From the NCBI GenBank assembly GCA_965261595.1, contig CBDHDG010000006.1, positions 928,001 to 992,000 of the forward strand: a DNA stretch of 64,000 nt, given 5' to 3'. This DNA comes from a bacterium (GTDB taxonomy: Bacteria > UBA8248 > JACPRG01 > G963555815). The first letter of the stretch is position 1. Each line of letters opens with the position of its first letter. Under the pieces are notes generated by a model, which saw nothing but the letters and a program-made list of their open reading frames with translations, was not told the DNA's origin and did no database searches. A program made the position numbers and the translations under genes. Positions 44,274 to 50,044 of the stretch are shown one piece after another.

Positions 44274-44305
44274 TTGACTCCGTACCCGACTCCGGGGATT
44301 ATCTT
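44274..44305 (+). promoter_or_regulatory. MerR-type promoter/operator with a long spacer
   Basis: TTGACT (44274-44279), 20-nt spacer CCGTACCCGACTCCGGGGAT with imperfect dyad CCGTAC..CTCCGG, TATCTT (44300-44305); begins like the Tn501/Tn21 PmerT TTGACTCCGTAC. Confidence 0.82.
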
Positions 44306-44366
44306 GACGATCAGCCTTTGACCACGCCGATCGGCGACACGCCTTCTCCCCTAGGAGCTGAGGATA

Positions 44367-44612
44367 ATGGAACAGAAAGAGGTTACCCTATACACATCGA
44401 GCTTGTGAGCGTCTTGCAGAGGCGTGAAAGAGTTTCTTTCACATCACAGCATTCCCTACCAGGAGCACTTGATCGACCAAGACCAGGAAGCGATGAACAC
44501 CTTGGTTGAGAAAACCGGACGCAAAGCCACTCCCGTGCTTCTCATTGGCGAGGAAACCGTGGTGGGCTTTGACCGTCGAAAAATCTCGGACCTTTTGGAG
44601 ATTGGTCGATGA
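44367..44612 (+). CDS. Glutaredoxin/NrdH-like selenoprotein (U-A-S-C; Sec at TGA 44406-44408)
   Basis: GAGG RBS then ATG; MEQKEVTLYTSSL-U-ASC-RGVKEFL...KTGRKATPVLLIGEETVVGFD; SECIS-like hairpin at 44424-44442. Confidence 0.85.
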
Positions 44613-44968
44613 ACGCTTCAGAGCGAAGGCTCCGCTGCCCTGGCTGCGAAATGGACATTCCAGTCCCGTGGGACGCCAAGAACGGCGACGTTACTGAGTG
44701 TGAGAACTGCGCGGGTGTTCTGTTTCGCCTCTCCGAACAGGACGGCGGGGACATCCTGCGGCTCGTGCTGCTTGTCTCGTGTCCTTTCTGCGAGGAGACA
44801 ATCCCGGTGGACGATAACACGCCCGAGGGGACCGTCATTCGTCACGGGGGGGCGGAATTTTCGCTGACGAAGGAGTTCGGCGCTTTCTCGCTGGAGCTCG
44901 CCGGCGGCCAAAGACCCGGCCTGGTTCCGGCAGCGGACGCGGACAAAGCGCGAGGGACGGCAGGTTGA
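44609..44968 (+). CDS. Tandem zinc-ribbon protein (LysW-like fold)
   Basis: CPGC...CENC then CPFC...; ATGA overlap with the glutaredoxin gene. Confidence 0.65.
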   Translation: MNASERRLRCPGCEMDIPVPWDAKNGDVTECENCAGVLFRLSEQDGGDILRLVLLVSCPFCEETIPVDDNTPEGTVIRHGGAEFSLTKEFGAFSLELAGGQRPGLVPAADADKARGTAG

Positions 44969-45267
44969 AGCCGCAAAGATCAATCACGGGAAAAATCATG
45001 CTGGGCGCGGCCTTCTTTCTGTGCCCCTGCCACCTGCCCATCTACCTGGCCCTGTTGGGCGGAACGGCCGCGGGCGCGCTGCTCTCCGAGAACGCGTACA
45101 CCGCCGGGGCCGTCCTGGCCCTCGCGTTCCTCGCGGCGCTCGTTCTGGGGTTGCGCATGCCGGGGAAGAACATTTCCAAGGCCGGGGCCGCCTCGGAGCG
45201 GGACCCATCCGATACCGGAGGGCAACCTCTCCGGCACGGTCGAATCCGGCGGGCGCCCCTTGGATGA
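44965..45267 (+). CDS. merE: MerE-like mercury transporter
   Basis: CPCHLPI...GGTAAGALLSE signature. Confidence 0.82.
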   Translation: MKPQRSITGKIMLGAAFFLCPCHLPIYLALLGGTAAGALLSENAYTAGAVLALAFLAALVLGLRMPGKNISKAGAASERDPSDTGGQPLRHGRIRRAPLG

Positions 45268-45279
45268 GGGAGAATCGCG

Positions 45280-45618
45280 TTGCGCTTGAAAGAGGTATTT
45301 CCCGGAGCGGCCGGCGTCCTGACTTCCTTGGGGGCCTCCATCTGCTGCCTCCTCCCGCTCGCGGTGATTTACCTGGGACTCGGAACGGGATCCTTCATGG
45401 CAACGACCATGAAGTACCGCCCCATCGTATTTCCATTGGGGGTGATCGGCCTCGGCGCCGGTTACTTCCTTTACTTCCGGGAGCGAAAACGCTGTCGACG
45501 CGTGGCGTGCAGAATGGCGGGCTCCAAAATCAACCTGGCCTTGCTGGCGGCGGCGACGATCATCATGGCGGGTGTCGTGTGGGCCGATTTCTTCTCGGGC
45601 GTCCTGGCCATGATGTGA
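45280..45618 (+). CDS. merT: MerT-like mercuric transporter
   Basis: ASICCLLPL in TM1, YRP, cytoplasmic C....C pair, three TM helices. Confidence 0.85.
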   Translation: MRLKEVFPGAAGVLTSLGASICCLLPLAVIYLGLGTGSFMATTMKYRPIVFPLGVIGLGAGYFLYFRERKRCRRVACRMAGSKINLALLAAATIIMAGVVWADFFSGVLAMM

Positions 45619-45635
45619 CGCAAAAGGGGGAAGCG

Positions 45636-45968
45636 ATGTCAGGCGTGCATCGTCCGTGGAATGGGTTGAAATGTGTGGTTCTGGCGGCCGTCTTCGCCAT
45701 GGCGCTCGGCGGGTGCGAAGGAGACCCGGTTCCATCGGCCGAAGCCGGGGAGCGGGTGACTCTGAGGGTTTCGGGGATGACGTGAGGCGCCTGAGCGGTC
45801 ACCGCGAAACCAGCCTTGGAAAGGCTGGATGGAGTGAGAAAAGCCCGGGTGAGCCTCTCGAAGGGAGAGGCGTACGTCACGTATGACCCAAGCCGGGTCA
45901 CGGTGGCGCAGATGATTGCGGCCATCAACCGCCTGGGGTTCAAAGGCGGCATGAAAGAAGGATCGTAG
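45636..45968 (+). CDS. merP: MerP-like periplasmic HMA protein with two putative selenocysteines (GMT-U-G-A-U)
   Basis: Lipoprotein-like leader ending LGGC; VTLRVSGMT-TGA(45783)-GGC-GCC-TGA(45792)-AVTAKPALERLDGVRKARVSLSKGEAYVTYDPSRVTVAQMIAAINRLGF; hairpin at 45810-45828. Confidence 0.85.
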
Positions 45969-46073
45969 GCGGGCCTCGATGGGTCCGCGGAGAGGATTTC
46001 CGCTGATCGGATACGGCCGATGGTCCGGGTGGTCTCCTTCGGCCGGGATACGTTGAGTGGGGGCATGGACAAT

Positions 46074-46301
46074 ATGGAAGATAGAAAGCTGCTTCGCACG
46101 GGAGGCGCGGGGACGGTTGTTGCCGCGATTTGCTGTTTCACGCCGGCCCTCGTCCTGCTGTTCGGGGTGATGGGTCTATCGGCCTGGGTCGGTTGGCTGG
46201 ATTACGTCCTTTGGCCCGCGCTTGTGATATTTGCCGGAATGACGGTCTATGCCCTTATCCGGCTGAGGAAGAAACCATCCGTCCACCGCAAAGGGACCTG
46301 A
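46074..46301 (+). CDS. merF: MerF-like mercury transporter
   Basis: KLLRTG..GTVVAAICCFTP.LV.L...GLSA..GWLDYVL.PAL signature. Confidence 0.9.
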   Translation: MEDRKLLRTGGAGTVVAAICCFTPALVLLFGVMGLSAWVGWLDYVLWPALVIFAGMTVYALIRLRKKPSVHRKGT

Positions 46302-46802
46302 TTCAAAGAAAGGCCGAATAATGAGGTTTTGGTCTTTTCTTCTTTCCATCAAGACACATCTCCCTTCGCCAAGACCAAAACTTTCCTCGCGAGCCGATCA
46401 AACCAATAGTTGAGGGGTCCAAGATGGCTGAGTCCTTGCGTTCCAAAGAGGGTTCCTTGACATTGATTGCCTTGATCGCGGGAGGGGTCTTGCCACTCCT
46501 GATCGTTTTTGGCTCCGCCCGTCTACTGCCCATGCCGACCCTTTTCTGGGCTGTCGGCGTCCCGGCGGAAATCGTTCTTTTTGGGGTTCTGCTCTACGCT
46601 CGTTCGGCCGGACCGGAGCGCTTGTATCGGAGGCTTTGGGTGGGGTGATCGGCGGCGTATTGCTCACCTTGTCATTGGATGCCGTCCGAACCGCAGGGGT
46701 CAACATCGGTTACCTTCCGGATTCCGTGTCGATGTTCGGGCGCTTGGAGTTGACCCGGTTTGGTGGACACCTGATGATTTGGGGGTAAAGGAGGTGTTCA
46801 CG

Positions 46803-47117
46803 ATGCCACAGACTCACCCACGCTATCCAATGGAGTTCCGCTGCCAGATGGTAGAGTTGGTCCGGGCGGGACGCACGCCCGAGGCGCTGGCGCACGAGTT
46901 CGAGCCCTCGGCGCAGACGATCCGCACCTGGGCCCATCAAGCCGACGTTGACGAGGGGCGTCGCAAAGACGGGCTCACGAGCGATGAGCGGGAGGAGTTG
47001 CGCCGACTTCGCCGCGAGAACCGACAGCTCCGCCAGGAGCGGGAGATCTTAGCAAAAGCCGCGGCCTGGTTTGCTCGGGAGACCGATTCGATCCCGTCCG
47101 GATCTACGGGTTCGTGA
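46803..47117 (+). CDS. IS3 transposase OrfA
   Basis: HTH followed by ELRRLRRENRQLRQEREILAKAAAWF. Confidence 0.9.
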   Translation: MPQTHPRYPMEFRCQMVELVRAGRTPEALAHEFEPSAQTIRTWAHQADVDEGRRKDGLTSDEREELRRLRRENRQLRQEREILAKAAAWFARETDSIPSGSTGS

Positions 47118-47965
47118 GGGCGAACCAGGCCATGTATCGGACCGCCACCATGTGCCGGGTGCTGGGCGTCTCCTCCAGCGGCTACTACGCGTGGCGCAGG
47201 CGCGCGCCGTGTGCCCGCTCGTGTGCCGATCGGGCGCTCACCAAACGCATTCAGGCGATCCACGAGCGTTCTCGGGGGACTTACGGCGTGCCGCGCGTCC
47301 ATGCCGAGTTGGAGGCTGAGGGAGTGCGTGTGGGCCGCAAGCGCGTCGCCAGGCTGATGCGTGGGGCGGGACTTGCGGGCGTCAGTCGGCGCAAGGGAGC
47401 GCGCACGACGCAGCGCCGGCAGGAGGCGCGGCCGGCCCCTGATCTGGTGGACCGCAACTTCACGGCCGAGGCCCCCGACCGGCTGTGGGTGGCCGACATC
47501 ACCTACGTTCCGACATGGGCGGGGTTTTTGTATCTGGCCGTGGCGCTCGATGCGTTCAGCCGGCGCATCGTGGGGTGGTCGATGGCCACACACCTGCGGG
47601 CCGAGTTGGTGCTCGACGCGCTCGACATGGCGCTGTACAAGCGCCGTCCCCGGGCCGTCATCCACCACTCCGACCAGGGCAGCACGCAGTACACCTCGGT
47701 CGCCTTTGGGCAGCGCTGCCGGCAGGCGGGCGTGCGTCCCTCCATGGGTTCGGTCGGGGACTGCTACGACAACGCGCTGTGTGAGAGCTTTTTCGCCACG
47801 CTGGAGTGCGAGCTCCTCGCTCGCCACAGTTTCCGCACCCGGGCCGAGGCGCGCATGGAGGTGTTCGGGTTCATCGAGGGCTTCTACAACCCGCATCGTC
47901 GGCACTCCTCCATCGACAACCTGTCACCCGTTAACTACGAAAGGAGACAACAACGCACACCCTGA
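47114..47965 (+). CDS. IS3 transposase OrfB (DDE)
   Basis: WVADITY, HHSDQGS and DNALCESFF motifs. Confidence 0.93.
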   Translation: MRANQAMYRTATMCRVLGVSSSGYYAWRRRAPCARSCADRALTKRIQAIHERSRGTYGVPRVHAELEAEGVRVGRKRVARLMRGAGLAGVSRRKGARTTQRRQEARPAPDLVDRNFTAEAPDRLWVADITYVPTWAGFLYLAVALDAFSRRIVGWSMATHLRAELVLDALDMALYKRRPRAVIHHSDQGSTQYTSVAFGQRCRQAGVRPSMGSVGDCYDNALCESFFATLECELLARHSFRTRAEARMEVFGFIEGFYNPHRRHSSIDNLSPVNYERRQQRTP

Positions 47966-48289
47966 AAACCCAAGTGCTTAACTCTCCACGAAACCGGGGT
48001 AAGTCCATTGCGTTTGGAGTGGTCTATTCAATCCTTTTTGGAAAGACCCGATGGTGGGGCGCCGTGCTTTATAGCGTCTTCTTTGTAGAGCTTGGCATGA
48101 TGACCCTTCCACCGATGGCGAAAATGATGGGACCTTTCGGCGTCAACAAGTTCGGCACAATTTGGAACGGGATGTTCATAACCACATTGCTCGCTCACGC
48201 CGCGATGGGGGTTGTGCTCGGTGTTGTGATTCAGAAGTGGGGAAAGCACCCCGGTTTGTTTTTCTCAAGTAGAAGCATAGGCGCGTAGT

Positions 48290-48538
48290 GTGGTGCTATC
48301 GGAACTTCATATCGAGGGCATGACGTGACCCAAGTGCGTCAAACGGGTCCGTGAGTCCCTGAAAAAATCCCCGGGAGTTCAGGACGTCCAAGTTTCTTTG
48401 GAGACGGGACGGGCCGTTATTTGGATGAAAAAAGGAAGCCTACCCACAGAGGACCTCCTCGAACAGGTGGTGGAAGCGGCCAAAGGCGCCTTCCATTCCT
48501 ACGTCGCCCGCTGGGTTAAACCCCCCTCTTCGAATTAA
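48290..48538 (+). CDS. Stand-alone HMA (CopZ/NmerA-like) selenoprotein (GMT-U-P-K-C; TGA 48326-48328)
   Basis: Absent from the ORF track; MVLSELHIEGMT-U-PKC-VKRVRESLKKSPGVQDVQVSLETGRAVI...; SECIS hairpin weak. Confidence 0.8.
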
Positions 48539-48687
48539 GCCGCATCCGCTGATTCGGAGAGTCATCAGCACCAAATCCCGAACCCTTTTCGGACTCCACG
48601 CAGATGAGACAATCAGAGAGACCCCGGCTGTCATCCAATGCTCCTCGAAGCCGATCTGGATTTTGAGGGAAGCGTTTGGAGAGCGAC

Positions 48688-50044
48688 ATGGCTTTAAAGT
48701 CATACGACCTCATCGTCATCGGAACGGGGTCTGCGGCCTCTGCGGCAGCATCCGAATGCCGCACCGCCGGGTGGACCGTGGCGGTTATCGATTCCCGTCC
48801 TTACGGGGGGACATGCGCCCTGCGCGGCTGCGACCCCAAGAAGGTGCTCGTCGCCGCGGCCGAGGCCCTCCACTGGGGGCATCGCTTGAGGGGCCGCGGG
48901 GTTCGTCCCGGCGATGCGCGGATCGACTGGCCCGAGTTGATGGACTTCAAGCGCACGTTCACCGAATCCGTGGCGCAGAGCCACGAGCGGTGGTTCGCCG
49001 AAGTCGGGATCGACGGATACCACGGGCGGGCGAAGTTTATCGGCCCCGTCTCTGTTCAAGTCGGCGGCGACGATCTGGAGGCCAAACACGTCTTCATCGC
49101 CTCCGGCGCCATGCCGGCCAGGCTCGGGATCCCGGGAGAAGGGCATCTGATCGCGAGCGAAGACTTCCTTGAGCTGGACGAGCTGCCGGAGCGTATCGTT
49201 TTCGTGGGGGGCGGCTACATCTCCATGGAGTTCGCGACCGTTTCCGTCTGCGCCGGAGCTGAGGTCACCGTCCTTCACCGGGGTCCGCGACTCCTGCGTG
49301 GATTCGATCCCGGCTCGGCGGACTTGGTCGCGGAGGCGGCTCGCGGGAGCGGCATCGACCTGAAGTTGGAGACTCGGGTCGAAAGCATAACAAAGACTGC
49401 CGGCGGCTTTGTCGTTGAGGCATCCTCACCCGCGGGATCGCAAACGGTTGAAGCCGACTTGGTGGTGCACGGCGCCGGTCGGGTGGCTGAGATTGAGGAT
49501 CTCGACCTGGGAGCGGCCGGCGTGGAGCGGGGGAAGCGGGGAGTATTGGTGAACGAGTATCTGCAAAGCACCTCGAATCCGGCGGTCTATGCAGCGGGAG
49601 ACGCGGCGCGAAACGGAAGGACAGCCTCTCACGCCCGTGGCAGGGGTCGAAGGAGGGGTTGTGGCAGCAAATCTATTAAATGGGAACAAAGTTAAGCCTG
49701 ATTACACCGGAACGGCAACAGTGGCATTCACATTGCCGCCGATTGCCGCGGTGGGACTGAGAGAAGATGAAGCCAGGAAGAAGGGGCTCAAGTTTCAGGT
49801 GAATTTCCAGGACACGTCTGGATGGTATTCGACACGGCGCATGGGCGAGAAATACTCGGCATCCAAGGTGTTGGTCGAGGAAGACACGGGGCGGCTGCTC
49901 GGTGCGCACCTCCTCGGGCCGTCTGCGGATGAGCTGATCAACCTCTTTGCGCTTGCCATCCGCCACGGTCTCACCGCCGAGGGTCTAAAGGAGGTGATCT
50001 TCGCGTATCCGACGCACGCGTCTGACGTGGGTTATATGGTCTGA
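48688..50044 (+). CDS. Pyridine nucleotide-disulfide oxidoreductase, glutathione-reductase-like (frameshift at ~49608)
   Basis: GTGSAA, GGTCALRGCDPKK, GGGYI and YAAGD motifs, then LTPVA...YPTHASD in the 49589 frame; lacks the NmerA domain and the C-terminal Cys-Cys of MerA. Confidence 0.85.

Follow-up and report, generated by a model that had tools for sequence, protein, structure and literature searches.

The window, a stretch of 64,000 nucleotides (nt) of bacterial DNA (lineage UBA8248; contig CBDHDG010000006.1, positions 928,001 to 992,000), carries at 45636-45968 of its forward strand a gene for a small MerP-like metal-binding protein, in which TGA takes the place of both cysteine codons of the ligand motif. 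The explanation that best covers the observations as a whole, with a probability of roughly 0.86, is that this gene, referred to here as the UxxU gene (U, selenocysteine, Sec), specifies an exported MerP-like HMA protein with two Sec residues, made by recoding of UGA, that captures a soft metal and hands it on. The protein would be exported, probably lipid-anchored, and would have one HMA domain, with Sec replacing both cysteines of the GMTCxxC motif. Recoding of the UGA codons would follow the usual bacterial pathway (tRNA-Sec, SelA, SelD, and SelB acting on an mRNA hairpin), the recoding signal most likely being a single conserved hairpin at 45810-45828, in reach of both codons. The two selenolates would be displayed where the β1-α1 loop passes into the first turn of helix α1; in the periplasm, they would take up a soft metal ion, most likely Hg(II), and this metal would be passed to the cysteine pairs of the adjoining MerT-, MerE- and MerF-like membrane proteins. 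A correct reading of the gene would mean that the organism devotes three selenoproteins to one metal-handling cluster.

The gene, its reading frame and its fold

When TGA is translated as U, 45636-45968 (+) forms one frame of 110 codons, from an ATG at 45636 to a TAG at 45966-45968, and this translation, together with matches to Pfam HMA and to NF041115, makes it a putative coding sequence for a UxxU HMA (MerP-like) selenoprotein of 110 residues. Direct reading of the sequence ATG ACG TGA GGC GCC TGA GCG (45777-45797) places the TGA codons at 45783-45785 (+; U50) and 45792-45794 (+; U53), the first and second Cys positions of the HMA motif GMTCxxC, which becomes GMT-U-GA-U; the protein reads ...RVTLRVSGMT-U-GA-U-AVTAKPALERLDGV... 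over this stretch. The initial annotation had located TGA at exactly these two Cys codons and had described a complete in-frame HMA domain, and both statements agree with the sequence, its translation and the Pfam search. With U scored as C, the HMA profile (PF00403) is matched by residues 42-103 (45759-45944, +) over positions 1-62 of 62 (E 2.1e-14; 54.1 bits, with a gathering cut-off of 24.8). The domain thus continues through and beyond both TGAs, because the whole profile is matched. Standard gene callers cut a gene of this kind at codon 50, and annotations of mer-like loci can easily miss it.

A Shine-Dalgarno-like GGGGGA (45626-45631, +) ends 4 nt 5' of the ATG. The hydrophobic N-terminal leader, MSGVHRPWNGLKCVVLAAVFAMALGG-C, closes in a lipobox-like LGGC with Cys27 at 45714-45716, and the segment 45636-45716 (+) is probably a lipoprotein signal peptide; hydrophobic N-terminal leaders are also present in relatives of the protein. 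The gene was said to lie directly after merT. The position is right, in that a MerT-like gene (45280-45618) ends 17 nt 5' of the UxxU gene; the name fits less well, as this neighbour scores below the family cut-offs.

A structure model built with AlphaFold2 on a 14-row family alignment has the order beta-alpha-beta-beta-alpha-beta (strands 39-46, 67-73, 78-83 and 103-106, helices 51-62 and 90-99), with a predicted local distance difference test score (pLDDT) of about 88-94 over the domain. In the leader region, it shows a helix at 13-21, and residues 1-34 have low pLDDT. U50 closes the β1-α1 loop, and U53 belongs to the first turn of the helix, so that the profile match is accompanied by ligands on the β1-α1 loop and helix N-terminus, as in the PF00403 fold. 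Foldseek returned HMA domains only, among them MerP 1osd_A (template modelling score of 0.95 on the target, root mean square deviation of 1.1) and reduced MerP 1afi; the latter was also found by phmmer against the PDB (E 2.3e-12).

The best NCBIfam match is NF041115.1 ("UxxU_metal_bind", "metal-binding (seleno)protein"), which the protein reaches at 98.1 bits (cut-off 95; E 2.3e-28), with residues 39-106 aligned, U as C, on positions 4-71 of 74; a six-frame search with stops unread gave 84.8 bits for the same model. The orthologues in two related genomes, G003 and G045, score 99.3 and 94.6. The UxxU protein thus exceeds the equivalog cut-off of this family and has UGA at both ligand positions.

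Conservation of the paired TGA codons

The UxxU protein was used to search 61 related genomes, with stops read through. TGA was found at both ligand positions in 16 small HMA genes, distributed over 15 of the 61 genomes, nine genera and four families. At the DNA level, the HMA homologues have the UxxU state in four genomes (GMTUGAU in the genome of the window, G000; GMTUGGU in G003; GMVUPSU in G045; GLFUVGU in G025), a loop one residue longer, UxxxU, in eleven (GMTUPSSUP, GMSUPFTUP, GMFUPFGUP) and the UxxC state in one additional genome (G056). The G003 orthologue is 64% identical to the UxxU protein from end to end, before as well as after the TGAs. Orthologues thus have TGA where other homologues have Cys, and conservation extends past the TGA codons.

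The UxxxU HMA genes are those at loci L028, L035, L036, L039, L044, L024, L037, L038, L040, L041 and L042. Several of these relatives carry an N-terminal MerT-like domain as a fusion, with two TGAs, and the UxxxU gene of G046 has a second HMA-like domain and adjoins MerE and MerB. The UxxxU relatives score 58.7-75.8 bits on NF041115, and none, the MerT-HMA fusions included, reaches a curated NCBIfam cut-off. Four further TGA candidates (G027, G043, G040:C129 and G024:C239) were dropped, their translations showing CxxC genes with stops upstream.

The distribution has clear limits. Genus g7 (23 genomes) gave only CxxC matches of the copper-ATPase/CopZ type with the UxxU query, and a family search across 51 genomes of the phylum yielded no U..U genes beyond the 61-genome set. 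All 80 loci kept from other phyla are CxxC, with at most 57% identity over the domain; the pattern used for that scan was written with Cys codons, and the scan is silent on Sec forms outside the phylum.

The stretch 45280-46301 occurs in sequencing runs of 10 studies, and four runs were compared across 44300-46400. One contig (X2) is identical to this comparison stretch and may be its source, and another, from a different study (X6), has five letter differences and a 21-nt insertion in merF, and keeps both TGAs. An RNA-library contig (X15; 1189 nt, 45110-46298) has 41 differences, with none at the TGAs among the 38 of 41 listed. A pseudogene or a sequencing error can be excluded because the TGA pair is conserved and is retained in X6. 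A dead or misassembled gene, disrupted by nonsense mutations or sequencing errors, or yielding a 49-residue peptide as its sole product, would agree with the stop of standard gene calling at 45783 and with probable indel problems elsewhere, where two pyridine nucleotide-disulfide oxidoreductase (pyr-redox) genes (breaks at 49600-49630 and within C7:11328-12697) are each split between two frames. However, those errors are frame shifts rather than substitutions, TGA stands at both ligand positions in the 16 genes, the full HMA domain is conserved past the stops and the hairpin downstream covaries (see below), so that this explanation is effectively refuted. The argument of the initial annotation, that two independent nonsense mutations at these codons are implausible, is thereby upheld.

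The downstream hairpin

An 8-base-pair (bp) hairpin resembling a selenocysteine insertion sequence (SECIS) element, CCAGCCUU-GGA-AAGGCUGG with loop GGA, occupies 45810-45828 (+), its stem beginning 24 nt downstream of the first TGA and 15 nt downstream of the second. Every gene with the TGA pair folds a hairpin at this same downstream position. In a gap-free alignment of 17 sequences, 63 nt long and starting at the second ligand codon, the helix corresponds to columns 19-26 with 30-37 (45810-45817 with 45821-45828). Pairing is intact in 128 of the 136 cells (94.1%), and five of the eight pairs are changed on both sides. The covariation score (0.602) was reached by none of 500 shuffles (mean 0.308), sliding the partner by 1-3 columns reduced pairing to 38-67%, and RNAalifold recovered the same helix. 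Some of the compensating changes are non-synonymous (GCC UUG GAA AGG CUG, ALERL, against GUU CUG GAA GAA CUC, VLEEL; ALEGL also occurs), and the helix is therefore not explained by protein conservation alone, because these changes alter amino acids. The X6 contig also keeps the pairing: its two changes in the hairpin, 45811 C>T and 45812 A>G, turn C-G and A-U into U-G and G-U.

As a control, 47 distinct CxxC HMA segments were examined at the same columns. They form between one and six of the eight pairs, most often two (2, 19, 14, 9, 2 and 1 segments with 1, 2, 3, 4, 5 and 6 pairs, respectively), and none of the 47 forms seven or eight. Single-sequence folding gave z-scores of -1.2 for the 65 nt from the first TGA and -3.85 for an 84-nt segment; the case for the hairpin is one of comparative evidence, not of folding energies.

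Searches for bacterial SECIS elements accept about 16-37 nt between UGA and apical loop, and expect a G near the start of that loop. The distances from both UGAs to the 45810-45828 hairpin are consistent with this range, and a stem-loop at short distance downstream, with a G in its apical loop and conserved among the orthologues, is what was found. A more proximal candidate after the second TGA (GCGG-UCA-CCGC, or GACC-N6-GGUC in the UxxxU forms) was rejected: in the 17 sequences, it is 54.4% paired in one register, with covariation equal to that of shuffles, and 75% paired in the other, with no changes on both sides.

Selenocysteine decoding in the genome

The genome of the window (seven contigs, 6.17 Mb, 96.7% complete) has the machinery for Sec decoding. 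A tRNA-Sec (selC) was detected with Rfam RF01852 (72.1 bits) and by ARAGORN (tRNA-SeC, anticodon tca, 97 nt), selA matches at 469 bits, the SelB wing domain at 75 bits, and selD at 330 bits (G000:C5:89297-90265, minus strand), the last with one in-frame TGA. An in-frame TGA within selD is a feature of many Sec-using bacteria. Two further Rfam tRNA-Sec matches over the cut-off, at C7:923157 and C4:730794, proved to be tRNA-Ser and tRNA-Leu. A reassigned code can be excluded because TGA is the normal stop of four genes of the cluster, namely the glutaredoxin-like gene (44610-44612), the MerE-like gene (45265-45267), the MerT-like gene (45616-45618) and merF (46299-46301); global reassignment of TGA is thus ruled out.

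Another reading of the codons would be that one or both UGAs are read as Cys, or as a mixture of Cys and Sec, by a SECIS-dependent tRNA of the tRNA-ReC/selC* type, to give a CxxC or a UxxC/CxxU product. In a 2026 study of hydrogenases (PMC13582414), tRNA-ReC-type tRNAs are reported as more frequent in genomes with UXXU motifs, and ARAGORN found five overlong tRNAs other than Ser and Leu in the genome of the window. Against this, the whole-genome ARAGORN search found one tca tRNA, the 97-nt tRNA-SeC, and one ordinary 74-nt tRNA-Cys (gca), with no long odd tRNA having a tca or gca anticodon, and seven of the 14 other Rfam tRNA-Sec matches, those given loci, are Ser, Leu, Tyr or Ile(tat) genes. 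Decoding as Cys is very improbable. The five long tRNAs (89-95 nt; C4:822511-822599, C5:360254-360345, C6:63141-63235, C6:889829-889918 and C7:131504-131594) have the anticodons ttt, ttc, tat, cgg and ctc, and are possibly allo-tRNA-like genes; the one with tat also reaches 39 bits on the Rfam tRNA-Sec model.

The UxxU gene is almost certainly a true selenoprotein gene, to judge from its sequence and that of its relatives, because the Sec machinery, normal TGA stops, the conserved TGA pair, the covarying hairpin, the independent assembly and two further TGA genes nearby all point the same way. The proposal that both TGAs encode Sec, in a UxxU site, is therefore strongly supported by the machinery, the conserved pair, the hairpin and the family-model match.

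The gene cluster

The cluster begins with a promoter-like site (44274-44302), followed by genes for a Sec-glutaredoxin-like protein, a LysW-like protein, MerE-like and MerT-like proteins, the UxxU HMA protein, MerF and a small open reading frame; beyond these lie an IS3-type element, a membrane-protein gene, a UxxC HMA gene and a glutathione-reductase/MerA-like oxidoreductase gene. The first gene (44368-44612, +) has the motif TSSL-U-AS-C, with TGA at 44406-44408, and is glutaredoxin-like by NCBIfam (TIGR02196, 73.5 bits, below the cut-off of 88.55; Uxx-star family, 42.8). It has its own 8-bp hairpin, GUGAAAGA-GUU-UCUUUCAC, beginning 15 nt after its TGA, and its TGA stop overlaps the ATG of the LysW-like gene (ATGA). 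The latter (44609-44968, +; Pfam/NCBIfam) encodes a double zinc-ribbon protein of 119 residues, with two zinc-ribbon halves and four CxxC pairs.

Three Mer-type membrane proteins flank the UxxU gene. The MerE-like protein (44965-45267, +) has a CPC motif, and scores 35.1 bits on PF05052 (cut-off 22.8) and 41.7 against 80 on NCBIfam. The MerT-like protein (45280-45618, +) has a CC pair, SICCLLP, and a TGA stop, and was assigned from weak family matches. MerF (46020-46301, +), also with a CC pair, scores 71.4 bits on PF11431 and 93.4 against a cut-off of 50 on NF033565.

The second small HMA gene (48290-48538, +; translation and NCBIfam) has GMT-U-PK-C, with TGA at 48326-48328. It is without a signal peptide, is closely followed by the pyr-redox gene, and has a CopZ-type model as its best NCBIfam match, below the cut-off; no clear hairpin was seen in its single-sequence fold (z -0.57). 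The pyr-redox gene (48676-50044, +; glutathione-reductase/MerA-like) is in two frames, with the change near 49600-49630, between "...YAAGDAARNG" and "QPLTPVAG...". A second pyr-redox gene of this genome (G000:C7:11328-12697) matches the MerA model in two pieces, and the split frames of both may be assembly indel errors or real frameshifts. The IS3-type element (about 46760-47990) has its transposase in two frames, 46509-47117 and 47114-47965. With 42 matches in the genome, and some 40 near-identical copies across seven contigs, its copy number points to recent expansion, and its insertion possibly broke up a DUF6789-like membrane-protein gene, of which 46424-46648 and 47974-48288 would be the two parts (weak Pfam match).

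Function and the question of mercury

A mercury role for the UxxU protein is suggested by its gene context, which places it next to merF, a MerE-like gene and the MerT-like gene that scores below cut-off. Mercury as the ligand, the linear Se-Hg-Se site and the hand-off problem, as put forward in the initial annotation, are inferences. The protein is most likely a periplasmic soft-metal trap that would feed the Mer-type transporters; Hg(II) is the best guess for the metal, at about even odds, a copper or a redox role being the main alternatives. In G045, the orthologue lies between a MerT-like gene and an ArsR-type regulator; ahead of the MerT-like gene stands a pyr-redox gene whose product has the C-terminus ...KMSCCVE (L017, 2254-3279, minus strand; MerA-like with a CC tail, from the gene neighbourhood). 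Such a C-terminal Cys-pair tail is typical of MerA, and by its sequence the G045 locus has the make-up of a compact mer-type operon whose "MerP" would contain Sec. MerR, MerE, MerF or MerB genes adjoin relatives in G040, G024, G016, G044 and G046.

Several observations weigh against the proposed mercury-binding, MerP-like protein, and some of them would suit a genuine two-Sec HMA protein with a non-mercury partner, serving either as a chaperone for Cu(I), Ag(I) or Cd(II) in the periplasm, or as a diselenide/selenol redox protein with the Sec-glutaredoxin and the glutathione-reductase-like enzyme. The MerP model TIGR02052 gives the UxxU protein 60.6 bits, short of its cut-off of 92.55 and about equal to the CopZ models (51-62 bits, including 61.8 and 54.6, all below their cut-offs). 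No MerA was found in the genome of the window at the TIGR02053 cut-off (best 324 against 454), nor any match to HgcA; the oxidoreductase of the window is nearest to glutathione reductase, and has no C-terminal Cys pair. Redoxin/AhpC genes are neighbours in G025 and G046, and a thioredoxin-like gene in G056, and in four g5 genomes the relative stands amid housekeeping genes with no mer genes. On the other side, the three Mer-type transporters flank the gene (the MerE-like protein and MerF exceed their Pfam cut-offs, the MerT-like protein does not), the G045 orthologue adjoins the MerA-like gene with its CC tail, mer genes lie beside relatives in the five genomes listed above, and the copper ATPases and CopZ-like partners of the same genomes retain CxxC. 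A non-mercury partner is thus a possibility to be held tentatively, and appears unlikely on balance.

The other points on the debit side concern the locus, the relatives and the decoding. There is no MerR among the scanned cluster genes of the window, and the MerT-like gene falls below the cut-offs of both Pfam MerT (23.5 bits, gathering 32.9) and NCBIfam MerT (25.1 against 150). The IS3-type element parts merF from the UxxC HMA gene and the oxidoreductase gene, the latter in two frames. A genome of the same genus (G001, 95% complete) has no match to the UxxU query. The contigs from RNA libraries show presence, not transcription, strand or level; X15 has gaps at about 44730-44870 and 45040-45110, and X17 covers only 45370-45647. 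Insertion of Sec at both codons by one hairpin is a prediction from the nucleotide sequence; the decoding of two close UGAs by one hairpin is raised as no more than a possibility in the 2026 paper on UXXU hydrogenases (PMC13582414).

A bolder interpretation of the two-Sec MerP-like protein and its neighbours takes the whole cluster as a selenium-dependent system for uptake and handling of a soft metal (mercury), in which three selenoproteins (Sec-glutaredoxin, UxxU HMA and UxxC HMA) would work with the MerE/MerT/MerF-like transporters. A linear Se-Hg-Se complex would capture the metal at concentrations, or in sulfidic settings, where a thiol-based MerP would fail, and one SECIS hairpin would serve both Sec codons, whether 9 nt apart, as here, or 12 nt apart, as in the UxxxU relatives. 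This interpretation is speculative and rather doubtful as a whole. If true, it would let the SECIS spacing rule be tested on a natural case, and would be a natural counter-example to a remark of Haft and Gwadz (2022; bioRxiv 10.1101/2022.07.06.499078), who state that their catalogue is without a mercury-resistance selenoprotein except for a small MerT-related set. The remaining questions are biochemical: whether a di-selenolate HMA domain binds Hg(II) or Cu(I), how it would release the metal to the Cys pairs of MerT/MerF, and how two UGAs are served by one hairpin.

Comparison with known systems

The initial annotation called UxxU motifs rare and known from the SelL family. They are not confined to SelL, as NF041115 ("UxxU_metal_bind") and published review tables already list UxxU. 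The metal-binding UxxU family is already catalogued, with its family, motif and selenoprotein status curated. The table of a 2022 review (PMC9312934) has an entry "Putative mercuric reductase, PRK13748, UxxU", and the tables of this review and of a 2026 review (PMC13188914) give the UxxU family two Sec, both reviews attributing it to Zhang and Gladyshev (2007; PMC1976440). The main text of that paper names a "Putative mercuric transport protein" only, with neither "mercuric reductase" nor "MerP". In a table of the GOS paper (PMC2398784), one of the selenoprotein families is "Mercuric transport protein MerP". In the literature searched, no experimental paper on the NF041115 family or on a Sec-containing MerP/HMA protein was found, and no biological use of the term "UxxxU". 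The family is known from computation only.

NF041115 is the closest system: it has a single HMA domain with UGA at both ligands, agrees with the UxxU protein in motif, spacing and size, and differs in nothing structural. MerP (TIGR02052; 1afi, 1osd) resembles it as a predicted-exported single HMA domain encoded after a MerT-type gene, with the same ligand positions and 36-40% identity (36% to oxidized MerP 1osd_A). Unlike MerP, the UxxU protein has Sec at both ligands, a lipobox-type leader and a MerP score below the cut-off, and there is no merR among the scanned genes of the locus and no merA above the cut-off in the genome. Copper chaperones of the CopZ/Atx1 type and P-type ATPases, in their N-terminal HMA domains, share the fold, the GMxCxxC-type loop and similar model scores, but these proteins work in the cytoplasm with Cys as the ligand. 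Where CopA/CopZ genes occur in the same genomes, they are still CxxC, with no hairpin of this kind.

The MerT-family selenoproteins to which Haft and Gwadz (2022) refer likewise have selenium in a component of Mer-type uptake, as does NF045683 ("MerT/CopZ fusion-like heavy metal transport selenoprotein"), but the UxxU protein is unfused and scores 40.3 against 375 bits on the latter model. The fused relatives are not members of that family either (L040, 41.6 bits; L038 and L042 fail at E 1e-10). SelL is a eukaryotic UxxU selenoprotein, and its thioredoxin/peroxiredoxin-like fold is not that of the UxxU protein, which is HMA/ferredoxin-like and has only the motif spacing in common with it. Like SelL, bacterial Prx-like UxxC/UxxU proteins, FmdB-family proteins and the UXXU group 4 [NiFeSe] hydrogenases (PMC13582414) have two Sec three positions apart, in folds and roles other than those of the UxxU HMA protein (thioredoxin-fold redox, zinc-ribbon and hydrogenase Ni site). 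The bacterial UxxU cases also share with it the arrangement of both UGAs upstream of one predicted SECIS element.

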